From an uncultured Verrucomicrobiota bacterium (GTDB lineage: Bacteria; Verrucomicrobiota; Verrucomicrobiia; JABWAM01), in NCBI GenBank assembly GCA_964653025.1, contig CAZZBZ010000006.1, forward strand, positions 6,292 through 70,291: a DNA stretch of 64,000 nucleotides, read 5' to 3'. Shown here piece after piece: positions 2,797-60,938 of the stretch. The stretch's first letter is position 1, and the number at the start of each line of letters is the position of its first letter. A model generated the notes under the pieces. The model did not search any database and was not told where the DNA came from. It worked only from the letters and a program-made list of their open reading frames with translations. The position numbers were made by a program, and so were the translations under genes.

Positions 2797-3108
2797 GGTG
2801 AAATGCTGCAGCCGGCTTTCCGTGCGGGCAAGGGGAAAACGGCCGTCGTCCCATTTGCTAGTCTGCTGTCCCTGAAGTGCCTGCCAATATTTCTTTTGAT
2901 GGAGGGCCACGCTTCGTCGTGGCCATCGGCCATCACAGAGGGCACGACGAAGCGTGCCCCTCCATCATTCAGAGCAAACTTCTCGAAATGTGCGAGATCC
3001 ATAGTAGCAAGCATTTCGTGGACACCACACTAGCAAGTTGACGTCAAATCGTGAAGTCCACCGGATACTTGATTCCTGGAGGGTGACGAGAGTATGTAAA
3101 TTCCCCGT

Positions 3109-4176
3109 ATGAAACCCTGTGCGCGACGCCACGTCAGGAACTGGGCGGTTTTTGCCGTCCTCGGGGCGGCCCTTCGCGCCTTCGCGGCGGAAGATCCGCT
3201 CGCGAGTTTGCGCGCCTTCTCGAGTTTCACCTCCGTGGACATTTCTCGCCTTGCGAAAGGTGAGGTTCTCACGGATCGAGGGGACGGCATGGATTTTGTG
3301 CGAGGGATCAGTGGGGAAGCCTGCTACGTCGTGCGCAAGGAGCCTGCCGCAGTTGCCCGTTTTATTATTTCCTCCGATCCCTCGAAGGGTGCCCCGGACA
3401 GCGTCTACTACCATAAGAAATTCAGCGGGGTCGTCCCGGACTCGGTTTTCGTGGAGATGAAGCTCGACGATTCAAAGTTCGGCCAGCGTCGCGTGGTCGG
3501 GAAGACCCTCGAAGTCGGGGGGGGGAAGGCGGATTTCTTCATGAGCAAGGCGGAGATGGTGTGCTTTGAGGAAGTGGCCAAGCAGGGACGGGCCGCGGGC
3601 CTGAAGCCCGCGGAGATCGCGGCGCACTGCTGGTCCTCCCTTTTCGTCGGGCGCGCGACCGCGTTCCTCAAATCGGGCCTCGACAACCTCGATCCCTATG
3701 AGACCGGGCGCGCCCCCGTGAAGCCCGCAGACGAGATGCGGCAACTCCTCGACGAGGTTCCCGAGGTGCGTGAGCATTTTCGCGGGCTCCTCAGCCAGAC
3801 CGGTCTCCTCGGTTCCCCCAACGCCGCGCCACGCCTCGCTCCCGAGTGTTATGCCGAACTGATGAACGCCCAGGTTTCGGCCAGCTTCGATCTCGGCGCC
3901 ATTTTTGTGAAGGAACTTCCGGGCGGTGAGGTTCAGGTCCTCGATTGCCAGTACTACTCCAGCGCGGCGTACTATGTGTCGCTGACGCTCTTCCATCTCT
4001 GGCCCATCCAGGTGGACGGGGCCCCCGCGACGCTCGCGTGGCGAGGGGACCTTCTTTCCGCGCCGCTTCTGGAGGTTACGCACGGCACGGCCCGCATGGC
4101 ATGGGGCCTGGTGATGATGCGCGAGATCAAACAATCCATCCAGATCTTCCAGAAAGACATCCTGAAGGCGCCCTGA
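3109..4176 (+). CDS. Secreted hypothetical protein
   Basis: The ORF is 355 aa with protein-like composition. The N-terminal signal peptide is MKPCARRHVRNWAVFAVLGAALRAFAAEDP. It contains an in-frame G9 tract at 3517..3525. Confidence 0.55.
   Translation: MKPCARRHVRNWAVFAVLGAALRAFAAEDPLASLRAFSSFTSVDISRLAKGEVLTDRGDGMDFVRGISGEACYVVRKEPAAVARFIISSDPSKGAPDSVYYHKKFSGVVPDSVFVEMKLDDSKFGQRRVVGKTLEVGGGKADFFMSKAEMVCFEEVAKQGRAAGLKPAEIAAHCWSSLFVGRATAFLKSGLDNLDPYETGRAPVKPADEMRQLLDEVPEVREHFRGLLSQTGLLGSPNAAPRLAPECYAELMNAQVSASFDLGAIFVKELPGGEVQVLDCQYYSSAAYYVSLTLFHLWPIQVDGAPATLAWRGDLLSAPLLEVTHGTARMAWGLVMMREIKQSIQIFQKDILKAP
3517..3525. repeat. Homopolymeric G9 inside CDS 3109..4176 (encodes GGG)
   Basis: Nine consecutive G residues are read directly from the sequence. 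Confidence 0.9.
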
Positions 4177-5172: not shown

Positions 5173-6912
5173 TTGAAACGCGCGGCCTGGTGGTTCCTGG
5201 CGGCGTTCATCGTCGCCCTCTATCTGGGGTCGAGCGTGGTCCCCGTCCTGTTCGACGAGACGGAAGGGCAGTACGCAGGCGCCGCGAGGGAGATGCTCCA
5301 GCGCGGGGAATGGCTCCTGCCAACCAACAACGGCCTGCCTCGGTTGCAGAAGCCCCCGCTTCTCTACTGGGTGATTCTGCTTTCCTACAAGGCCTTCGGT
5401 GTGAGCGAGTTTGCCGCGCGGTTGCCGAATGCCCTCGCCTGTCTGGCCTGGATCTTCGGCACCGCGCTGGTGGGTCGGTGTGTCAACGGCTGGCGGCTCG
5501 GGGCCTACGCCGCCCTCCTCCTTGCCACCTCGTTCGGTTTTTTCATCTTCGGGCACCTGATCATGCCCGAGCCCTTTCTCGGGGCGTGCGTGACCTTCGC
5601 CTTCTGGTGTCTGCTGTGTGCGCTTCGCACTCCTGAGCGGGAGGCCGCGTGGTTCCGCGGGGCTTGGTTCTTTATGGCCCTGGGCACCCTGCTGAAGGGA
5701 CCTCACGGATTTCTCTACCCGGTGCTCGCCCTGGGGGGGGCGGCGCTGTTTTCGGAGAAGTTCGCGGGATTGTGGCGGCGCTTTTGGAGTTGGCGCCGAG
5801 TCCTGCTCTTCCTCGTGGCCGTGGCGCCCTGGTACCTCGTGATGGAGACCCGGTTTCCGGGATTTCTTCACGAGAACTTCGTCAACGAGCAGGTCGGGCA
5901 TCTCCTCAACGCGCGCTTCCCTCCCGACAGCCGGGCCGTGCCGTCGCTCATCTTCTGGGGTCAGCACCTGCTCTACTTCTTTCCGTGGGCCCTCTTCGTG
6001 CCGGCCGTCGTGTGGGCCTGGCATCGTCCCGAGCCGTGCGAAGAGGCGGGCCACGATGCCGCACGGTTGCTCTGGGCGTGGATCGCGGTGACGGTGGTGA
6101 GCGTCGCCTTCTCGGCGCGGCAGGACTACTACACGATGACCTGCTGGAGCGCGGTGGCGGTGGCCCTGGCGCGCCCATGGGCCCGCGAAGAGGCCGTCCC
6201 TCGGCGCTACTGGGTGGTTCCATGCGTGCTCATGATGCTGGCCGGTCTCGTGGGCGTGGCCTTGTGGCCCCGCATTGATTTCCTGATGGCCGAATCCACC
6301 TTCGAGGTGGACCCCGTTGCCGAGCGCGACACGCTCTGGAACGCGCTCCACGGTTCCACGTTCGGCGGCTGGAGCGAGTTCGTCCCGCTGATGAAGGCGG
6401 CGGGGCTGATCCTCCTCGCAGGGGGCGCCGTATCGGTCTTTCTCGCATGGAAGAAGCGGGCCGCCCTGGCTGCCCGCGCGGTGGCGCTCGTCATGCTGGG
6501 GCTGCTTGTGCTTGCGGCGCGTGGGCTCGCGCTGAAGGGGGAGTACTATTCGCTTGCCGGGGCCGTTGCCGGCATCAAGGCCGCCGCCGAACCCGGGGCC
6601 ATGGTGGTCTACGATGGAGAACCCCATCTTGCCGCGAGCCTTTTCTTTTACCTGGACCGCCCCGCCTCCTGGGTAAATGCCACGCCGGCCGTTGAGTTTG
6701 CCGTGCGCTACTTTGGGATCGGCGCGGAGGCCTTCCTGGAGCGCGCCACCTTTCAGAGGGCGTGGGGCTCTTCTCGCCAGGTCTTCCTGATCACCGAGAA
6801 GGCGGGCCTCGCGGGTTGGGCGAGCGATCTTGGCCTCGACAAACGCCAACTCACGCCGGTGGGAACCAGCGGCACGCGCGTGGCGATTGCGAACCGACCG
6901 GCGCGGCGGTGA
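5173..6912 (+). CDS. GT-C family membrane glycosyltransferase (ArnT/PMT-like, GT39/GT83)
   Basis: The polytopic membrane protein has the N-terminal GT-C signature DETEGQYAGAAREMLQRGEWLLP. This compares with DEGRYAEIAREML..GDWLVP in ArnT. It uses a TTG start in the ORF track. It contains an in-frame G8 tract at 5733..5740. Confidence 0.8.
   Translation: MKRAAWWFLAAFIVALYLGSSVVPVLFDETEGQYAGAAREMLQRGEWLLPTNNGLPRLQKPPLLYWVILLSYKAFGVSEFAARLPNALACLAWIFGTALVGRCVNGWRLGAYAALLLATSFGFFIFGHLIMPEPFLGACVTFAFWCLLCALRTPEREAAWFRGAWFFMALGTLLKGPHGFLYPVLALGGAALFSEKFAGLWRRFWSWRRVLLFLVAVAPWYLVMETRFPGFLHENFVNEQVGHLLNARFPPDSRAVPSLIFWGQHLLYFFPWALFVPAVVWAWHRPEPCEEAGHDAARLLWAWIAVTVVSVAFSARQDYYTMTCWSAVAVALARPWAREEAVPRRYWVVPCVLMMLAGLVGVALWPRIDFLMAESTFEVDPVAERDTLWNALHGSTFGGWSEFVPLMKAAGLILLAGGAVSVFLAWKKRAALAARAVALVMLGLLVLAARGLALKGEYYSLAGAVAGIKAAAEPGAMVVYDGEPHLAASLFFYLDRPASWVNATPAVEFAVRYFGIGAEAFLERATFQRAWGSSRQVFLITEKAGLAGWASDLGLDKRQLTPVGTSGTRVAIANRPARR
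5733..5740. repeat. Homopolymeric G8 inside the ArnT-like CDS 5173..6912
   Basis: Eight consecutive G residues are read directly. They encode LGGA. Confidence 0.9.
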
Positions 6913-13213: not shown

Positions 13214-14266
13214 TCACGCCATGCGCTCGAACATCTCGCGGGTCACTTCGCCGGAAATGGGGCGCCCCTCGACAAAGGCAAGAATCTGATCCACCGCCAT
13301 GCGGCCCTGACGGAGACAACCGTTCGAGACCGCCCCGGCGAGATGCGGAGTCAGAACCACGTTGGGAAGACGACGGAAGGGATGGTCGGCCGCCGGGGGT
13401 TCCGGGTCCGTGACATCGATGAACGCGGAGATGCGCCCGGTTTCGAGTTCGGCAAGGAGGGCCTGCTCATCCACAACCATCCCACGGGCGGTATTAATGA
13501 AGATGGCTCCATCTTTCATCGCGCGGAAATGCTGCGCCTTGAGAAGCTGCTTGGTTGCGGGGAGGGCGGGCGCGTGCAGGGAGACCACGTGGCTCTGGCA
13601 GACAAGGTCGTCAAGCGTGGCGAGGGTGCACCCGAGATCGCGGGCCGTCTCGGGTTTCATGTAGGGATCGTAAAGCAGGATGCGGACCTCGAAGTTGCGC
13701 AGCAGGCGAATCAGGTGCAGTCCGGCCCGGCTGGCGGAGATCACGCCGACGGTGACGCGGTAGAGTTCCCGGACCGCCATGCGGCCTGTCCCCAACGTCG
13801 GATCGCTCCACTTGCCGAGGCGCGTCCAGTCGCGGGACGGGAAAAACCCCTTCAACCCGGCGATGGCCATCCCGAGGGCGGTTTCGGCAACCCCCACGGC
13901 GATGGCGTCGTTGGTGGTTGCGATGCGGAGCCCGCGCGTCCAGATATCCGGGGGGACCAGGCGTTTGATGCTGCCGGCCGCGTGGACGAGAAGCCCGAGG
14001 TTGGGCAAGGAATCGAGGAACTTCGCCGCGAGTGGCGGGGTGCCCCAGCCGGTCACAAGGATCCCGATGCGGTCGGCGAACTCCGCCTCGATGGTCGGCG
14101 TAGCCCCGGTCCCTTCGCCGAGAATGACCGGGAGGCGCGCCTGAAGCGCCGCCATATCTTCCGGATCGAAGCAGCGCCTGCGGTTAGTCTCCGGCAGGTG
14201 GAGATAGGCGCGTTGGAGGGAAGGGGGAAGGGGAGGCATCGGGGTCAGGTGGGGGGAGGTCTCCAC
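13214..14266 (-). CDS. D-isomer-specific 2-hydroxyacid dehydrogenase family protein
   Basis: The NAD-binding domain has G-x-G-x-x-G-like GTGRMA. The catalytic region is typical, with RG...D/E...H, and the sequence LTPHLAG is present. Confidence 0.8.
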   Translation of the reverse strand: METSPHLTPMPPLPPSLQRAYLHLPETNRRRCFDPEDMAALQARLPVILGEGTGATPTIEAEFADRIGILVTGWGTPPLAAKFLDSLPNLGLLVHAAGSIKRLVPPDIWTRGLRIATTNDAIAVGVAETALGMAIAGLKGFFPSRDWTRLGKWSDPTLGTGRMAVRELYRVTVGVISASRAGLHLIRLLRNFEVRILLYDPYMKPETARDLGCTLATLDDLVCQSHVVSLHAPALPATKQLLKAQHFRAMKDGAIFINTARGMVVDEQALLAELETGRISAFIDVTDPEPPAADHPFRRLPNVVLTPHLAGAVSNGCLRQGRMAVDQILAFVEGRPISGEVTREMFERMA

Positions 14267-16815
14267 CGCATGAGGTTGATGCCGACGGAAAAATAGACGT
14301 TGCCGTCGCGGTCACACACGACTCCCGCCCCGATCTCCTGGCCGTCGATAAGTTGGGCGACCATCGTGCAGTTTTCGGGATGATTCGCAGGAGCACGGAA
14401 AATGGCCTGGCCGAGGGAACCGTAAATCGAACGGCTTCGGGCATCCCAGGCGAGCGTGGCTCTCCACGGCACGGAGGTGGAGGTGCGAAGAGATCTCCGG
14501 AAGCTCACGGAGAACGTGTTGGGGTCAACCCCGAACCATTCGCCTTCCCGGGTCAGCCCGCAGATCGGCCCGTCCGGTACAACGAGTAACGCGGCGATGG
14601 AAATGGCTCCAGGGACCTGGACCGTGCGAAGGACCTGATGCTTGTCGAGATCCCATTCAGCCAGCGTGGCGGTTTCAGCGACGGTCGCGCTTCCAGACCC
14701 CCCGTGGACCGAACTCCCCAGGTAGAGGCGCCGCCGTCCGTCATCCACGGCGAGAGCGGCGATGCTTTGGCGCGGGATGACGGAGCGCCAAACAGTGAAG
14801 GTTTCCTCCCCCTTGCGCAGGCACGCGAGCGCCCCGTTGTGCAGCCCGTAGCCGGGAGCGGTGCCCACATAGACGTTTCCAGACCGGTCGGAGACCATCG
14901 CCCAGGGACGATCCTGTTCCTGGCCAATTCGGCCAATGGTGCGGACCCCTTGACTGGGTTCGGAGGGATTAAAGGTATGGACGGTGGCATGCGTGTAGGT
15001 TCCCAGATAGAGCCTGCCATTGGCGGCGCACATGGAATCCACCTGCCCCGCCTTGAAAGACGTGATTTCGCGAAGATCATGGATTTGCCTTGTGGCCGGA
15101 TCGAAGGCCATCAAGACCGACGGCTTCGTCGAGGCATAGATCCGCCCATCCGGCCCCAGGGCGATGGAGTAGATGGATTTTACCCCACCCCCATAGGGAA
15201 GCGGAATCGAGACATGCTCGCCTCCTTCGCTCCATTTCCTTAAGAGGACCTTGGTGGCGCTCGCCTCGACAATTTGCCAGCCATTCTCGAGTCGAGGCTG
15301 GGCGGGAAAGGACGGGGGCATGCAACCCATTGCCTGTCGCACCCCATTGGCGACCTGTTCCACCTTGCCTCCCGGGGAGATTTTGAGGCAACGTCCTTCG
15401 CTGGCGGGGGTTGCGATCCCCGGGTAAGCGTACACAAGCCCATCCTCGCCCATGTAGACCCGGGGGACATGGTTGGTGACCCAGTCCTTGGGCCACACGT
15501 CCCTTTTCGCCCCGGAAACCGGGTTGTATTCGAAGAGGGCCTGCGAGCGCATGCCCACCGCGGCGTAGACAAGTCCATCGCGCCCGACGGCCCCGAAGCA
15601 GGCATGGGTCTGGTCGGGACTCAGCGCGCCGAGGTTGGTGATTTTCCGCGTCTTTGGATCAAGAGAAAACAGGAGGTTGCCCGGGTTGGTCCCCCCGTAG
15701 ATGGTGCCGTCGGGCGCCGTCTTGAGCCAGTAGACCATGGTCTCGTTTTCAATGCCGCCCAACTGCTCGACGCGGTTCTCCTTCGGATCGAAGCAGAAGA
15801 GAAAGGCACCGGGAGCCTGGGAGGTCCCGAGATAAACCCTGCCATCCTTCCCGGTCGTGATACCGTAAGGCATGCCGCTGAGTTCGTGCTTGGTCACCTC
15901 ACGCGTCGCCAGGTCGACCACCAGGATGAAACGATCACGTCGGAAAGCCATCACGAGCAGTTGGCCTGCGCCCCTCGGGTTCGGGCAAAGGGTCCAATCG
16001 TGGAGCGAGGCCGGGCTTTCGCCCGCCGGGCCCAATACCTCGATGCGGTCGTTCAGCAGCGCTTGCGGTACGCCCAAGGGGAGCTTCGGCAAGGAAGCCG
16101 CGGGGGGGCGCCCCGTCGTGGTGGCGGTCGCGCTTTTCTGCTTGCTGAGATCACCGAACCAGGGGGGCTCATGGGTGTCGGCGCCCTGGCCAACATCGAG
16201 TTCCTCCTGGCTCATGAGGCGGACACTCCCATCGCAGAAAAGGACGTGGGCCTTCTTCCCATCGAAACCAAACTGCATCCCTCCGTTTGGGTAAGCCTGG
16301 TACCAGCCCAAGCCCGGCTGTTTGATCGCTTCACTTTCGACAAGCAGGAGTGTTGCCCCGGCGTTGGGGACCTCCCGTACCAGCCGTCGACGGGGGCCAA
16401 TCTCTCCGCCCTTGGCATCGGCTCCAAGCGCATAGGTGTTGTAGCCGTAGCTCACGAGGCTGGCCTTGCCTCCTCGACGGAAGCTCATCGGCACGGACGG
16501 AGAGAAGAAGGGGCCATCGATCCTGACATGTCCCGGCGGAGAGGGATCATGGAGAGCCTTCTTCAGCAGTTCGGGCCACAGCAGCACCCGACCGCCATCG
16601 CCCTTGAGGGACAGCGGGGGAAACTCGCCGCCGTGATCCTTGCGCCATACCTGGAAGGCCTCGTAGAGCTCAAGTAGGTTCTTCTTCACCTGGGGGTCGG
16701 GCTCCTCGGCCCGTGTGGACGGGGGGGGGGTGATACCCCCAAGCAGAACAGCCAACAAGATCCCTCCTTTGATCAGCGCTCTGCACAGGCTTACGGGTGT
16801 TGAGCGGGTGTTCAT
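14245..16815 (-). CDS. Secreted fusion protein. It has an H-X9-DG (DUF1559 C-terminal-like) region and a large SBBP-type beta-propeller.
   Basis: The signal peptide is MNTRSTPVSLCRALIKGGILLAVLLG (ATG 16815). Residues about 150-250 resemble the C-terminal half of the neighbouring DUF1559 protein: VSYGYNTYALG...AHVLFCDGSVRLMS. They lack the prepilin N-terminus. After that come at least 9 repeats of the form DG.VY.GT....L..FDP. An example is DRSGNVYVGTAPGYG, which is SBBP beta-propeller-like. A C10 tract sits 85 nt into the CDS. Confidence 0.7.
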   Translation of the reverse strand: MNTRSTPVSLCRALIKGGILLAVLLGGITPPPSTRAEEPDPQVKKNLLELYEAFQVWRKDHGGEFPPLSLKGDGGRVLLWPELLKKALHDPSPPGHVRIDGPFFSPSVPMSFRRGGKASLVSYGYNTYALGADAKGGEIGPRRRLVREVPNAGATLLLVESEAIKQPGLGWYQAYPNGGMQFGFDGKKAHVLFCDGSVRLMSQEELDVGQGADTHEPPWFGDLSKQKSATATTTGRPPAASLPKLPLGVPQALLNDRIEVLGPAGESPASLHDWTLCPNPRGAGQLLVMAFRRDRFILVVDLATREVTKHELSGMPYGITTGKDGRVYLGTSQAPGAFLFCFDPKENRVEQLGGIENETMVYWLKTAPDGTIYGGTNPGNLLFSLDPKTRKITNLGALSPDQTHACFGAVGRDGLVYAAVGMRSQALFEYNPVSGAKRDVWPKDWVTNHVPRVYMGEDGLVYAYPGIATPASEGRCLKISPGGKVEQVANGVRQAMGCMPPSFPAQPRLENGWQIVEASATKVLLRKWSEGGEHVSIPLPYGGGVKSIYSIALGPDGRIYASTKPSVLMAFDPATRQIHDLREITSFKAGQVDSMCAANGRLYLGTYTHATVHTFNPSEPSQGVRTIGRIGQEQDRPWAMVSDRSGNVYVGTAPGYGLHNGALACLRKGEETFTVWRSVIPRQSIAALAVDDGRRRLYLGSSVHGGSGSATVAETATLAEWDLDKHQVLRTVQVPGAISIAALLVVPDGPICGLTREGEWFGVDPNTFSVSFRRSLRTSTSVPWRATLAWDARSRSIYGSLGQAIFRAPANHPENCTMVAQLIDGQEIGAGVVCDRDGNVYFSVGINLMRWRPPPT
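16721..16730. repeat. Homopolymeric G10 (C10 on the coding strand) inside the 5' end of CDS 14245..16815
   Basis: Ten consecutive G residues are in the window sequence. On the coding strand they encode TPPP directly after the signal peptide. This is a classic slipped-strand mispairing substrate. Confidence 0.9.
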
Positions 16816-16831
16816 GCGCAGATGCGGGTGA

Positions 16832-17542
16832 CTACTTGCAGTTGTTGCCGAACCATGGCGCGTTGTCCGTGTCGGGCGTGGCTCCAGTGACCAGTTGGTC
16901 TCTTGTCCGCGATTCCGCGTGGACGTCCGCAAAAAGCACATTTGCGCGTCCCTCGTGCCGCTCGAAGAAGAACGCGGGATGACAATATGAACCGTACCAC
17001 CCGACGTACGGTTGGGTGGTGGCCTCGATGTCCACGAGCATCAGCGTCTGCTCCGTTGGACTGCGCAGGTCCTTCCGCAGCTTCGTATTGCCGTCTGTCC
17101 AGGGGGTCATCCCGCCCCCAACCCCGTAGTGGCTCAGGCCATAGCTGACATAGGAGGCGGAGAGGTTCCGATCCTTTATGGGCACCGAAGGGCAATAAAA
17201 CACTCCCCGGGGATCGAGGTTGTAGCCGCTGGTGTTGTCCCCGACGTAGCGTTTCAGCAACACACCCCAGGCATAGTGTTCGGTAGCCGCCGTCGCAAGG
17301 TTCGGGGCAAAGCGAACCGGTGGAAAGTAGCCGTCGAAATCGTTGCGGTAGGCCATGATTGCCAGCCCGATCTGGCGGAGTTGGCCGGTGCAGGCGGTGC
17401 TTCGCGCCATGGCACGCGCGCGCCCCAGGGACGGCATCAGCAGGGCTGCGAGGATCGCAATGATTGCGATCACCACGAGAAGTTCGATCAGCGTGAAACC
17501 CCTTCCATCGCACCGACATGGCTCCGCCGGGGTGGTACCCAT
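16832..17542 (-). CDS. Prepilin-type N-terminal cleavage/methylation domain protein of the H-X9-DG (DUF1559) family
   Basis: The N-terminus is ...[28 protein letters not shown], a type IV pilin-like leader plus hydrophobic helix. The C-terminus is [15 protein letters not shown], an H-X9-D motif. This matches the TIGR04294-type family. Confidence 0.8.
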
Positions 17543-34355: not shown

Positions 34356-34367
34356 CGCAACTACTCA

Positions 34368-34454
34368 GGTTCACGGTTCAGAGGTTCAACGGTTCACGGT
34401 CGGGAATCTCGTTAGAAAATGATCGGCAACCGTTGAACCGTGAACCGTTGAACC
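34368..34454. promoter_or_regulatory. Array of TTCA(A)CGG repeats arranged as an extended inverted repeat
   Basis: The left arm is GGTTCACGGTTCAGAGGTTCAACGGTTCACGG (34368..34399). After a 30-nt spacer, the right arm is CCGTTGAACCGTGAACCGTTGAACC (34430..34454), the reverse complement of the same unit. It lies about 65 nt upstream of the SDR/CoA-transferase/thiolase operon. A related copy is at 40449..40517. Confidence 0.6.
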
Positions 34455-55238: not shown

Positions 55239-56963
55239 TTGACCCCCGGTTCGCCCCAGCGCGGGAGAATCGTGGGGGTGTGGTTTCCCCTCGCCATCCT
55301 CGTGGCGGTGTGGATGGCCGCCGCGTGGTGGGCGCGGCGCGAGTGCCTGCCGTACGACGTCAACAACACCGACGTCGGAACTTATCTTTTCCAGGCCGAG
55401 ACCTTCGCTGCCGGGCAACTCGCACGCCCGACGCCCGAGCCGCGTGAGTTTTTCTCGCAGTGGCAGGCAATCGTCCGGGATTGTTCCTTTGCCTACTACC
55501 CGCCGCTGCCGGCGGTCGCCATGGCATTGCCGATTGCGTTCGGCGGGTCGCCCTTCTGGGTTCCTTGGCTCTCGTCGGGTTTGGTGCTGGTCCTGACCTT
55601 CATCTGGATCAGGCGCCTTGCAGGGAAACGCGCCGCGTGGTTCGGGACGCTTGTTCTTGCGGTCTCGCCCTTCTTCGTCGCCAACGGCCTTTCAGTCCTC
55701 TCGCATGCGTTCACCCTGCTCCTGACCGTCGCGTTTCTCGTGGCCGTGGAACGCTGGCGGGCGATGGGATCTCGCGGGTGGGCGGCGGCAGCGGGAACGC
55801 TTCTCGCGGCGGTCTTCGCCTCGCGCCCCGTGAACGCCCTCGCGCTCGGGATCGCGTGGGTGCCATGGGCCGTCGCATCGACAATTGCCAACTGCCAATT
55901 GCCAACTGAAGAACGGAAACGGCAAGGCTTTATGGGGGTCGCGGGTTTTGCGGTTGGGTTTGCGGCGCTGTTCGTGCCGCTGGCGCTCTACTACCACGAG
56001 ATGGCAGGGCGGTGGACGCTCAGCCTGTTCACGGACTACTGGCCGAGGAACCGGTTCGGCTTTGGGCAAGGACTGGGGCGTGGGGAGACGGGACACTACT
56101 TCCAGACTTTTACGGATCACGATTTTTTTGGATTTCTTGGGAATCTGCGGTACAGCGCGGAAGGACTGGCGACCTGGTGGACGGGAAACGCATGGCTTTC
56201 GGCGGCGCTGCTCGGACTTGTGGGAATCCTCCTCGTTCTCCGTATCAAGAATCGGATTTCATCAATTGGCAGTCGGCAGTTGGCAGTTGGAAATGTTGGG
56301 TGGCCTCTGCTGGTGTGGCCTGCGGCGCATGTCTTCCTCTACGCGGGCTACTTCACCCCGAGCACTCCGACGACGGGGCCGCGCTACCTCGCCGAGCTCA
56401 TGCCGGCGCTTGCGCTCGCCACGGGGTGGGGCATGGCTCGCCTGGCGACCGGGGGTGTGGCAAGGCGGCGTCTCGCGCTCCTGCTTTTCTCGGTTGCGAT
56501 GGTCGTGTCGGCTCAGGCCGTGGTGAGGTTCCTTCGGCTCAATCAACTCGGTATCCCGGCCCGACGGGCGGTGGAGCATGGTGTTGTCGGGGAAGCGCGG
56601 GCGCCGGCGGTGGTCTTCCTGCGTTCCTTCTGGATCGGCCATCCGCTCCCGATCTTTCGGAATCTTCCCAGCCTCTCGGGTCCGGTGATCTTCGCATGCG
56701 ACCGAGGGGCGGAAGATCGACGGTTGGTGGAACGGCACCCCGACCGCAACGCCTATGTCCTCGCGCTGTTCCCCGAAGGGCGCGGGGTGCGGACGGAGAT
56801 GGTGCCTGTTTATCGGGCGAACGACCGCCGGTGGCTCCGTGCGCCTGAGTCGGTGGAAGCTCCCTTCTTTGTCGGGAGCCGCTTCACTCCTTCGCTGCGG
56901 CTGGAGGGGGAGGCGGCGAGGAAGCTCTTTTACCCGCAGCCGGACGAGATCGAGGGACAGTGA
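55239..56963 (+). CDS. Polytopic membrane protein, GT-C glycosyltransferase-like
   Basis: It has about 12 TM helices. The N-terminal periplasmic-loop motif NNTDVGTYLFQAETFAAGQL has the GT-C D-x-G-x-Y pattern. It carries two inverted 4x heptamer arrays in frame. Confidence 0.6.
   Translation: MTPGSPQRGRIVGVWFPLAILVAVWMAAAWWARRECLPYDVNNTDVGTYLFQAETFAAGQLARPTPEPREFFSQWQAIVRDCSFAYYPPLPAVAMALPIAFGGSPFWVPWLSSGLVLVLTFIWIRRLAGKRAAWFGTLVLAVSPFFVANGLSVLSHAFTLLLTVAFLVAVERWRAMGSRGWAAAAGTLLAAVFASRPVNALALGIAWVPWAVASTIANCQLPTEERKRQGFMGVAGFAVGFAALFVPLALYYHEMAGRWTLSLFTDYWPRNRFGFGQGLGRGETGHYFQTFTDHDFFGFLGNLRYSAEGLATWWTGNAWLSAALLGLVGILLVLRIKNRISSIGSRQLAVGNVGWPLLVWPAAHVFLYAGYFTPSTPTTGPRYLAELMPALALATGWGMARLATGGVARRRLALLLFSVAMVVSAQAVVRFLRLNQLGIPARRAVEHGVVGEARAPAVVFLRSFWIGHPLPIFRNLPSLSGPVIFACDRGAEDRRLVERHPDRNAYVLALFPEGRGVRTEMVPVYRANDRRWLRAPESVEAPFFVGSRFTPSLRLEGEAARKLFYPQPDEIEGQ
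55883..55908. repeat. Tandem heptamer array (AAYTGCC)x3.7 inside CDS 55239..56963
   Basis: The sequence is aattgcc aactgcc aattgcc aactg. Confidence 0.8.
56264..56291. repeat. Inverted copy of the heptamer array (caattgg cagtcgg cagttgg cagttgg)
   Basis: The reverse complement is ccaactg ccaactg ccgactg ccaattg, which is the same AAYTGCC unit family as 55883..55908. The two arrays form an imperfect 26-bp inverted repeat (about 4 mismatches) separated by 355 bp. Both are in frame in the CDS. Confidence 0.8.
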
Positions 56964-57844: not shown

Positions 57845-57916
57845 CGAGGAGGGAGCAGGGGGAAGCAGTGGGGGAAGTGGGAGGGGATCTTGGGACGGTT
57901 GTCAGTCAATCAGCAA

Positions 57917-58684
57917 TCAAGGGAGGGTGGTCTGCCAGTCGGCGTTCTTGTCGTACCAGTAGGTCATCTGGTTGGTTTCGTAGTGGTTGAAGGCGGCGAC
58001 GTGGCCGTCGGCGAAGAGGAAGTTGGCCGCGCCGTTGTGGGGAAGCGGGTAGGTGGAGCCGTTATGGGAGAAGCCGGTGCGATCAGTGACCTCGTTGGTG
58101 GGATCGAAGTCCTGGTCGTTGCGGTCTGTGGAGAGATCTTCGCTCATGAGGATGAACGCGGGTGGGTTGCTGATGCGGCGGGCGTCGAGGACGAATGCGC
58201 CGGTCTTCGATCCGCCGCCGACTCCGGGATCACCCCCGCCTTCCTTGTAGGGCTGGATGAGGTTGAGGTAGTAGTCCACTTGGACCACGGGGGTGACCCA
58301 CTTCGGGAGGCCACGGTCTTGCAGGATGCCGGTATCCTTGAAGTAAGGGTAGAGGAGCCGGGTCCATGACTGCGTGGATCCGGAGGAGTTCCACGCGGGG
58401 GAAGGGAGTCCGCTCTGGGCGACGAGTTGGTTTTCGTTCTCATCCCAGTACATCCGGACCGCGTAGCCGAGCTGCTTGAGATTATTGGCGCACGACATGG
58501 CCTGGGCGCGGTAGCGCGCCTTCGAGAGCGAGGGCATGAGCAGGCCCGCGAGGATGCCGAGGATGGCCACTACGACCAAAAGCTCGATGAGAGTGAAGGC
58601 GGTGAGCGGTGAGCGGTGAGCGGTGAGCAGGCTTGCTCCGTGTTGCGCGAGGAAACGGGGAGTTGGGCGAGACTCAAACATCAT
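57917..58684 (-). CDS. Prepilin-type N-terminal cleavage/methylation domain protein, H-X9-DG (DUF1559) family
   Basis: ...[28 protein letters not shown] is the pilin-like N-terminus, preceded by a 26-aa leader. The C-terminus [17 protein letters not shown] is an exact H-X9-DG motif. A 4x GGTGAGC heptamer array lies in the leader-coding region. The gene overlaps the upstream GT-C gene by 4 nt (ATGA). Confidence 0.8.
58601..58628. repeat. Perfect tandem heptamer (GGTGAGC)x4 in the 5' coding region of the pilin-like gene
   Basis: The sequence ggtgagcggtgagcggtgagcggtgagc is read directly. On the coding strand it encodes [11 protein letters not shown] in the leader peptide. The 7-nt unit is not a multiple of 3. 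Confidence 0.9.
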
Positions 58685-60867
58685 GGAGGGAGGATGTGGG
58701 GGGGCGGTGCGGGAGGCGAGGCTTGGGGGGAGCTTACCGCAGAAGGGGCGTTGGTGGAAATGATGGTTTGCGGGGGCGCGTTGCTGACCGTGACCGAGAG
58801 GACATTGCCCGACACGCGAACAACGATTCCCGATGGGATGATCGCGAGCGTGGCGACGTTCGATGAGATGACGGCCACCGGAAGGGAGACCGTGGCGGAG
58901 GGCGGGTTCGTCGCGGGGAGTGGCGGGGGGAGAGGGAGAACGGTCCTGCGGGTCGCCATGAGGCGACCCTGTTGCCCGTTCAGTTCGCCGAGTTCGCGTT
59001 CCATGGCCGTGATGCGGTCGCGGCTTTGCTGGGCACCGGGGTACTTCTGTTCGTGTTCCTCGCGGACGAGGTTGAGGCGGTAGCGGACCTGCTCGATGCG
59101 TTCCTGGATCTGTTCGAGCGTCAGCCCGCGGGAGGGAGCGGGGGTGGCAGTGCCGGGTTTTACGAAGGCGATTTCAGTGAGCGTCCAGACGGTGGAGCGA
59201 ATTTCGCCCTCGGGGCGGAAGGCGGGCTGCAGGCACTCCCCGACGGGAAGGAAGTCGAAGCGGGGGCCGAGGCGGGCCTTCCACGCGCGCGCGACCGCCT
59301 GGTTGCCGAACATCGCAACGCGTCGGCCAGCATCGAGGTGTTTGGCGATGAGGCTGCGCTGGATCTCGGCGAGTTCGGGTTCGCGCTTGCCCTCGAGCAT
59401 CTTCTTGATGGCGAGCGCCTTCTCGCGGTGAAAGGGATGGGGCTCGCCGTTTTCCAGCACCTTCGTCCAGCGCTGGATGGTGGCGCGGTCGAACATCCCC
59501 TGTCCATAAAGGGTGTGGTTACCCGCAAACTCGATGAACTGTAGAGACCCCTCGTCCGAGAGGATGACGGCGCTTTCGGGGAGTTTTCTACGGAGGAGGT
59601 CGGTGGCGTTGGCGGAGAAGGTGTTGCGTTCGAGCATGGGCATGAGGCGCTCGGTCGCGATGCCCTGGTTGACCCACGCGATGAAGAAGACGAGGAGCCC
59701 GGAGATGGCGACCCAGGCGGGGCGGAGGGGTTGTGCGTGGCAGAGCAATCCCATGCCGGCGATGATGAGCGGGGGGAAGATGCTCACGAAAAATCGGATA
59801 TAGGAGGGGCCCTCCCCGGCGGGAGCCCAGTAGTAGGCGGTGTAAAGGAGCAGCGTGGGCAGGATCCAGAGCGCGAGGAAGAGCCCCCGGCGGAACTCGT
59901 GGACGAGGTACCAGGCCATGCCAGCCAGCCCGAGCGGGAAGAGCAGGTAAAGCCCGGGAAAGTCCATCCGCGCCAGCATCAGCGGCCAGTTCTTCAAGAA
60001 CCATTTCTGGCTGAAACCCGTGGCCTCGCCGCACAGCGCATACCCTGTCTTGAGCGGTCCTCCGAAGGCGACGGTGTGTTGCCAGAGCAGCGGGGCGAAG
60101 GAGAGGAGGGCGGCGACCAGGATCAGCACGAGGTCTCGTACAAAGGGAAACAACACCCTCGATGGCGGGTTCTCGCCGCGGTCCCGCCAGAGGCGGATGA
60201 GGCGCGTGGCGACGATCGCGGCCGCCGGTAACGCGAGGAGGGCTTCCGTATAACGGGCACTGACAGCCCAGGCCATGGCCGCCGCGCCGAGCATCCCGCG
60301 CCACCCACCCCCCTTCTCGCCCCATTGCCAGAAAAAATACATCCCCCAGAGCGAGAAGAACGTGGAGGAGGGGTGACTCAGCGCCGAGACGCTGAAATAG
60401 GCATGCATCGGGTTGGTGGCCAGGAGGATTGCGGCGAAGGCGCCGGCGAGGTCGCCCGCGATCGCGCGGCCAAGGAGAAAGATGCCGATGACTGCGAGGG
60501 CGGAGAGAAGTGGGTTCACCCAGAAAGCCGCCGAGGGGCCGCCGAGACGCCATGCGACCGCGCAAAGGGATGGATAGCCGATCGGATACTTCGCGGCGTA
60601 GAGGTTGCGTTTCGCGTCCACGAGCACCCAGTTGCCGCTGATAAACTCATACGGGTCGGAGGACTGCTTCCGAACGTCCCCGGTCGTTGCGAGGCGTTTT
60701 GCGGTGACGAGGTAACCGTTCTCGTCGGTTCCCCCGAAGGAGGGTACGTAGTAGGCGCCCACCATCGCCACGAAAAGGGCGGCGGCTGCGATAGCGGCGA
60801 GAGCCGAGGAGAGTCTGCGGACCATCCCTCGAATGTGAGGCCGGACGGAGGGACGCATCAACCCCAA
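58681..60867 (-). CDS. GT-C family membrane glycosyltransferase (ArnT/PMT-like) with a C-terminal soluble/coiled-coil extension
   Basis: The N-terminal motif [21 protein letters not shown] has the DE.GY signature of GT39/GT83. There are about 11 TM helices. The C-terminal region of roughly 250 aa has a coiled-coil and a Pro/Ser/Thr-rich tail. Confidence 0.75.
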
Positions 60868-60938
60868 ACCCGGAGGGTTCGGTTGCCATGCGCCCCTGTC
60901 TCGGGAATGTCGCCTCCGTCCTTGTCCATCCCGTAGCG

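Follow-up and report, generated by a model that had tools for sequence, protein, structure and literature searches.

Verrucomicrobia and Planctomycetes encode very large families of paralogous DUF1559/H-X9-DG proteins, for which no role is known. SSR contingency loci, in turn, are known mostly from small-genome, host-adapted pathogens. In the 64-kb stretch of verrucomicrobial DNA analysed here (the window), a gene of this family carries a perfect heptanucleotide array in the segment that encodes its leader peptide. The question raised by this locus is whether the array switches production of the mature pilin-like protein on and off, as a preliminary description of the sequence had proposed, or whether it is a coding microsatellite in a segment that tolerates changes of length.

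The array and its host gene

Direct reading of the forward strand gives GGTGAGC four times without a mismatch; the coding strand reads CTG (CTCACCG)x4 CC TTC, and the array begins 56 nt past the A of the ATG at 58684 (Table 1). It corresponds to codons 20-29 of the ORF and encodes the 11 residues directly before FTLIELLVV. TRF reported period 7, 4.3 copies, 100% matches and a score of 60, the top score in the window. Sequence and TRF thus both agree with the preliminary description, which had placed four exact 7-nt units 56-83 nt after the start codon and before FTLIELLVV.

The array exceeds the expectation from composition. No 7-mer array of at least 3 units arose in 300 Markov-2 simulations of the window, and a 21-nt probe allowed up to 3 mismatches matched no second site there, with 0 matches expected; these two tests rule out a chance origin. 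An assembly artefact is likewise ruled out, since the array is present in four independent assemblies: the MAG L001, assembled independently, and two Logan contigs carry the identical array, and a degenerate form occurs in L009 and L010. No inverted partner of the array was found within 2.3 kb.

The 255-aa product matched PF07596 (DUF1559; 33.9 bits, cut-off 23.3), PF07963 (21.7 bits, cut-off 21.2), TIGR02532 (22.9 bits, cut-off 16.3) and, at residues 215-231, TIGR04294 (H-X9-DG; 26.1 bits, cut-off 19). Its N-terminus bears a cleavage/methylation motif, with Glu at +5, and a hydrophobic helix, and from this N-methylation motif the leader is expected to be cleaved off. In the proteins of the window, L009 and L006, Ala takes the place of the usual Gly at position -1 of the cleavage site; among orthologues the residue is Gly (P0002, P0006, P0007 and others), Ser (P0004, P0005) or Ala (P0010). 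Leader length also varies widely among homologues. Because both leader length and the -1 residue vary, a seven-residue insertion in the presumably cleaved leader is plausibly neutral.

A misannotated start that would leave the repeat outside the ORF was rejected. There is no in-frame ATG, GTG or TTG between the repeat and FTLIE, and the ATGATG at the start is kept in L009, where the upstream gene is missing. The mRNA around the start folded no better than shuffled sequences (z = +0.51), and no Sigma-70-type promoter or terminator signals were found beyond those of shuffles. At the other end of the gene, the stop codon lies within a 2.5-unit heptamer run (57901..57919), TGATTGC TGATTGA CTGAC, and the matching spacer in L002 (866..892) holds a 3.9-unit array (TTCATCG/TTCACCG) just 5' of the next gene.

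Table 1. Features of the locus, and leader alleles in the window and its relatives
Feature	Position or carrier	Strand	Basis or remark
DUF1559/H-X9-DG prepilin-like gene, 255 aa	57917..58684	-	Pfam, NCBIfam, homologues
Leader-peptide coding segment, codons 1-29, then FTLIELLVV	58598..58684	-	Sequence; divergence from L009
Perfect heptanucleotide array (CTCACCG)x4	58601..58628; periodic stretch 58599..58628	-	TRF, sequence, chance tests
TTG, possible alternative start	58675..58677	-	Frame simulation; conserved in L009
54-nt mosaic patch in mature domain	58192..58245	-	Comparison of window with L001
GT-C fold glycosyltransferase-like gene, 728 aa, upstream of pilin-like gene	58681..60867	-	Weak STT3/PMT matches
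Heptamer arrays (CCAAYTG)4 and inverted copy	55882..55908 and 56263..56290		Inside ORF 55239..56963(+)
Allele n=4, perfect	Window (protein P0126), L001, L012, L013		
Allele of 28-nt length with 4 substitutions: CTTGCCG CGCACCG CTTACCG CTCACCG	L009/L010; presumably two similar contigs		Flanks 90-95% identical to window
Allele n=1: …GCAAGCCCG CTCACCG CG TTC, encoding ASPLTA directly before FTLIE	L006		About 91% identical

Leader states in relatives

Relatives were collected by a search of 5.8 billion protein clusters, and the members of the 90% clusters were examined together with the available contigs. Close relatives were found at 96, 96, 81 and 72% protein identity. The perfect tract is shared with L001 (MAG GCA_049318025.1), 99.2% identical to the window over 6.3 kb, and with the Logan contigs L012 and L013, which are 99.97% and 100% identical to it. 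All three leader states (perfect four units, degenerate tract of four-unit length, single unit) are in frame. Compared with the single CTCACCG of L006, the window has three additional units, corresponding to 21 nt or seven residues (HRSPLTA), again in frame. The preliminary description had looked to sister genomes to tell a switch from coding constraint, and they point both ways: the length does differ (one versus four units), but L009/L010 keep 28 nt and every allele is in frame.

Other relatives have unrelated leaders that contain no repeat, including P0002, P0124, P0125, P0004 (72%) and the L002 lineage (P0003, 81%). P0002, P0124 and P0125 belong to the same 90% cluster as the window protein, and P0002 is 96% identical to it. 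The two 90% clusters contain no truncated or frameshifted members. Nine simulated alternative alleles (n=1 and 7, the TTG forms of n=2, 5 and 8, short frameshift products and truncated calls) were sought by exact look-up in a collection of 15 billion proteins; none was present, whereas the window's own protein was. Repeat-number polymorphism covering both ON and OFF frames was thus not seen among these assemblies and clusters, at low power, as the perfect tract occurs in four assemblies only, all at least 99.2% identical. A scan of contigs from species-representative genomes returned no close orthologue, only a 28% paralogue, and the scan of metagenome contigs gave one useful locus, L006. The neighbours of P0139 and P0134 yielded only contigs with unrelated, repeat-free leaders (P0002-type L014 and P0124-type L015).

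Altogether, at least four unrelated leader or N-terminal segments are joined to mature domains that are at least 90% identical (P0002, P0123, P0124, P0125, P0121). In L006 (about 3025..3050), homology of the leader to the window begins only about 25 nt before the array. Such combinations may reflect either recombination between paralogues at the FTLIELL-coding core or chimeric metagenome assembly.

The leader and the mature part diverge at different rates. Between the window and L009, 11 of the 56 nt before the array differ (19.6%), as do 4/28 within the array (14.3%) and 32/684 in the remaining mature part (4.7%), so that the leader has evolved about four times as fast as the mature part and appears weakly constrained, in fact near-unconstrained. 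The array of the L009 lineage decays by substitution at the leader's rate with its length unchanged; in H. influenzae surveys, tracts that change by substitution but not in length are taken to be inconsistent with phase variation (PMC2651432). The window tract, in contrast, is perfect though the surrounding leader is ~20% diverged from L009. If the common ancestor had a perfect four-unit tract, the chance that all four substitutions fell on the L009 side is about 0.06. Slippage that continues to homogenise the window tract, or selection that keeps it perfect, could account for its perfection.

A separate irregularity was noted in the mature domain. The 54-nt patch listed in Table 1 contains 26 differences in gene coordinates; of the 46 mismatches that separate the window from L001 over 6.3 kb, it holds nearly half. 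Its two versions are a 22-residue stretch and YIEGDGKPLVGPPEKNGPYFLD. A YIEGDGKP-type patch, near-identical to that of L001, recurs in the L006 lineage (P0121), although that lineage is more distant; this points to gene conversion or recombination.

Reading frames of alternative alleles

Alleles with 0-8 units were rebuilt in silico, and their frames were read from the ATG at 58684 and from alternative starts. From this ATG, the full protein is obtained only with 1, 4 or 7 units (248, 255 and 262 aa, respectively), while three units give 35 aa and five units 69 aa. The second start listed in Table 1 modifies this picture: with 2, 5 or 8 units the TTG is in frame with the mature part, and a full-length product from it would carry a different leader. 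Only with 0, 3 or 6 units is there no start codon in frame with the mature protein. The earlier claim that only 1, 4 and 7 units keep the frame is therefore right for the ATG, but a start at the TTG would restore the frame at 2, 5 and 8.

The textbook phase-variation architecture recognised in the preliminary description is borne out: an uninterrupted 7-nt SSR lies early in the ORF, its unit is not divisible by three, and it passes screening thresholds. In-silico screens for phase-variable loci use a cut-off of at least 3 units for 7-mers (PMC2651432; PMC5084427), and the array is above it. Screening nominates candidates only; we regard the array as a candidate SSR locus. Its use as an on/off switch fared less well, because the layout fits but every assembled allele with this leader is in frame.

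Contig ends at the array edge

The two Logan contigs that start at the array (SRR12261223_144802 and SRR12261225_133747, from runs SRR12261223 and SRR12261225) both begin at window position 58628, and the first 31-mer of both is G-(CTCACCG)4-CC. Logan contigs are assembled by Minia3 from k=31 de Bruijn graphs from which singleton k-mers are dropped (PMC12424806). Since the periodic stretch is 30 nt long, a single four-unit allele should be an unbranched path at k=31; in graph simulations n=4 alone indeed gave one unitig without a break. A mixture of n=4 with n=5 or n=7 produced a unitig start exactly as in L012 and L013, whereas mixtures with n=3 or n=1 moved the start 7 or 21 nt further in. 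A T>C SNP in the nucleotide immediately 5' of the array reproduced the same break. The breaks thus hint at longer alleles (at least 5 units) in the sampled population, with the flanking SNP giving the same break.

The 31-mers CGCTCACCGCTCACCGCTCACCGCTCACCGC and GCTCACCGCTCACCGCTCACCGCTCACCGCT are specific to alleles with at least five units. The left-junction 31-mer TGCTCACCGCTCACCGCTCACCGCTCACCGC occurs in every allele with at least four units and the CTG flank, and AGCCCGCTCACCG… marks the flanking T>C SNP.

The other end of L013 falls at window position 55882, the outer base of another heptamer array, and fits a longer allele or an adjacent SNP at that site. Three of the four Logan contig ends therefore lie on array edges to the base, and random breaks are unlikely to have placed them there. 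Copy-number variants may accordingly be common enough to pass the k-mer threshold of at least two reads. Asking whether k=31 contigs break at the very base that longer alleles predict may also serve elsewhere as an inexpensive indicator of SSR heterogeneity.

Neighbouring arrays and genes

All three period-7 arrays of at least 3.4 units in the window, namely the leader array and the two (CCAAYTG)4 arrays of Table 1, fall within 2.8 kb. The latter two, inverted relative to each other and 354 nt apart, map to two variable loops within a multi-pass membrane protein of 574 aa. The L009 sequence is shorter by 21 nt at the right-hand site; the left-hand site is occupied by (CAATCGG)x5 in L002 (3012..3047; about 72% identical) and, in L009, by an unrelated insert that brings inverted heptamer arrays of its own (6696..6724 and 6786..6814). 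The 574-aa membrane-protein ORFs are intact in all compared relatives. Heptamer arrays are thus a recurring and evolving feature of weakly constrained coding segments at this locus, in frame in consensus assemblies. Inversion of the segment between the two arrays inside the 574-aa gene was considered and rejected: cuts at the array edges introduce stop codons, and the 7 cut pairs that alone keep the ORF open place the right cut just outside the right array and give a hydrophilic antisense frame.

The gene upstream of the pilin-like gene encodes the GT-C-like protein listed in Table 1, whose counterpart in L001 carries the NCBI name ArnT family. The TGA of this gene and the ATG of the pilin-like gene overlap as ATGA, and the two genes are translationally coupled. 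A 2.1-kb segment holding this STT3/PMT/ArnT-like gene (window 58785..60906) is cleanly missing in L009 and L010; in L009 (3872..4000) about 100 nt of its 3' end are left 5' of the conserved ATGATG. This difference is a presence/absence polymorphism of a putative pilin-modifying enzyme.

Other repeats in the window were also recorded. The homopolymers C10 (16721..16730) and G9 (3517..3525) are not more frequent than expected from composition. The C10 tract encodes, on the minus strand, PPP just past the N-terminal hydrophobic segment of an 898-aa ORF, 14245..16941(-); this ORF contains an H-X9-DG motif and directly follows a second DUF1559 pilin-like gene, 16832..17542(-). Such a tract is a classical homopolymer candidate, yet 0.37 tracts of at least 10 are expected per 64 kb. 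At 34367..34454, an inverted pair of short tandem arrays, GGTTCA(N1-2) and its complement, about 27 nt apart, looks like a hairpin or operator.

Interpretation

The reading that we put first, with an even chance of being correct, is that the array is a coding microsatellite made by slippage and filtered for reading frame within a weakly constrained leader, and that frameshift variants are by-products. We infer a slippage origin for the array itself. Replication slippage would create and remodel the tract in this tolerant segment, while selection for an intact frame would pick the majority alleles, which would explain the restriction to n=1 and n=4. A change by a single unit would shift the ATG out of frame with the mature part and cut the product to 35-69 aa, which would make the site a built-in mutational on/off point. 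Frameshifted alleles are probably present as a minority, and the evidence so far makes them by-products rather than a selected switch of high frequency. The heptamer arrays of the 574-aa gene, which differ from L009 by 21 nt with ORFs intact, support this frame-filtered reading. Counting against it are the Logan breaks at the array edge and the perfection of the tract within a leader that is otherwise strongly diverged. It is also weakened by the path from one to four units: a perfect 4x7 array cannot come from one unit in one step, so the lineage passed n=2 or n=3, and slippage would have needed an out-of-frame or TTG-dependent intermediate. Finally, the position of a surface-type gene beside glycosyltransferase-like genes speaks against it. 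Surface-type and glycosyltransferase-like genes are the classic cargo of contingency loci.

A selected slipped-strand phase-variation switch, off at n=3 and 6, on at n=4 and 7, and reversible, is possible, although we hold it doubtful. Within such a switch, the TTG start may give a third, weaker state at n=2, 5 and 8, and the population would hedge against phage or grazers that target the surface structure. The architecture matches that of switches with an SSR in the leader region, and the one-versus-four-unit polymorphism, the perfect tract inside a fast-evolving leader and the clustering of all period-7 arrays around the locus all fit it. The membrane-protein array of L002 has a different, homogenised unit, which suggests concerted turnover and points in the same direction. 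The contig breaks, seen at the array edge in both runs and once more at another heptamer array, are as expected for alleles with five or more units, but the flanking-T SNP explains the break at the leader array as well. Further evidence weighs against a switch. Four units are at the low end for slippage rates: the phase-variable heptamer tracts of H. influenzae hmw1A and hmw2A have 13-38 units and lie mostly in promoters (PMC2651432), and switching rates depend strongly on the number of repeats, falling as it falls (De Bolle 2000 and Bayliss 2012, as listed in PMC11868660). An out-of-frame allele is absent from every assembly and protein cluster examined, and the sister lineage L009/L010 has lost tract perfection at constant length.

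On a broader scale, the leader array and the heptamer arrays in the adjacent GT-C-like membrane-protein loops might form a small hypermutable 'phasome' that stochastically switches or remodels a surface module of pilin-like and glycosyltransferase-like genes; we consider this conjecture rather unlikely. If true, the PVC group would gain its first SSR contingency system, in a host known so far from metagenome assemblies only, and the huge DUF1559 family, whose function is unknown, a first regulatory handle. A limited full-text search returned no report of SSR phase variation in Verrucomicrobia, and its matches concerned invertons. Should the tract switch, this would argue that at least some DUF1559 proteins are exposed at the surface and under fluctuating selection, for instance from phage or grazers, and slipped-strand phase variation would extend to environmental PVC bacteria. 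Should it not switch, the locus would be a caution that a textbook tract at threshold level can be a frame-filtered indel in a disposable leader.

Less probable still is a static relic, that is, a 21-nt in-frame insertion fixed once in the tolerant leader and no longer appreciably unstable. The same copy number in four assemblies fits a relic. So does the comparison with L009, from which the window diverges by 5-10%: the length is unchanged, and the array there has decayed by substitution as fast as the near-neutral leader. The exact look-up, which put no alternative allele on record, fits as well. Part of the same improbable reading is that the perfection of the window tract is due to chance and that the Logan breaks come from a flanking SNP or graph cleaning. 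Against it, L006 has one unit at the same site, so that the length has changed at least once; the array could not have arisen from one unit in a single event, and array-edge positions of three of four contig ends are very unlikely for random breaks.

We think it very improbable that the heptads work through DNA or RNA and not through frame, for instance as tandem protein-binding sites, by forming a two-tetrad G-quadruplex on the GGTGAGC strand or by an mRNA structure that adjusts translation initiation. The forward strand does read G2N5 four times, and heptamer arrays recur in the locus, some as inverted pairs. On the other hand, the start region shows no folding beyond shuffles, the leader array lacks an inverted partner nearby, its unit occurs nowhere else in the window, orthologues with other leaders are entirely without it, and in L009 it is decaying. 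An artefact or an explanation that we did not consider has a negligible share.

Comparison with known repeat systems

The nearest models are Neisseria opa, with CTCTT repeats, and pilC, with a poly-G tract, in which a repeat whose unit is not a multiple of three lies in the part that encodes the signal or leader peptide, and a change of one unit shifts the frame of the mature protein. The window array resembles them in its position within the leader-coding part of a surface-type gene and in a unit that is not a multiple of three. It differs in its 7-nt unit and four copies, in a prepilin-type leader in place of a Sec signal peptide, and in its uncultured environmental host. Furthermore, unlike for opa and pilC, which are listed among phase-variable modules (PMC7157529), no OFF alleles or within-clone switching have been observed for the window array.

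With regard to unit length, the array is closer to pglE and to hmw1A and hmw2A, all of which have a 7-nt unit. That heptamer tracts can mediate phase variation is accepted (PMC2651432). In N. meningitidis, a heptanucleotide repeat in the coding sequence drives phase variation of the pilin-glycosylation gene pglE (PMC7157529), a precedent that favours a switch. In contrast to the long, mostly promoter-borne hmw tracts, the window tract has four copies, is leader-coding, and keeps its length in the sister lineage.

Several short arrays with 7-nt units of differing sequence in one region of the genome also recall, by description, the STRR arrays of cyanobacteria. The latter heptanucleotide arrays are mainly intergenic and present in many copies per genome, whereas the arrays here are few, have about four units and lie mostly in coding sequence.

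Compared with ordinary in-frame indels of coding microsatellites, the locus shows the same behaviour insofar as lineages differ only by multiples of 21 nt and the host segments are fast-evolving. It departs from them in one respect: as the unit has 7 nt, each single slippage step is a frameshift, and the window array must have passed, and can re-enter, out-of-frame states.
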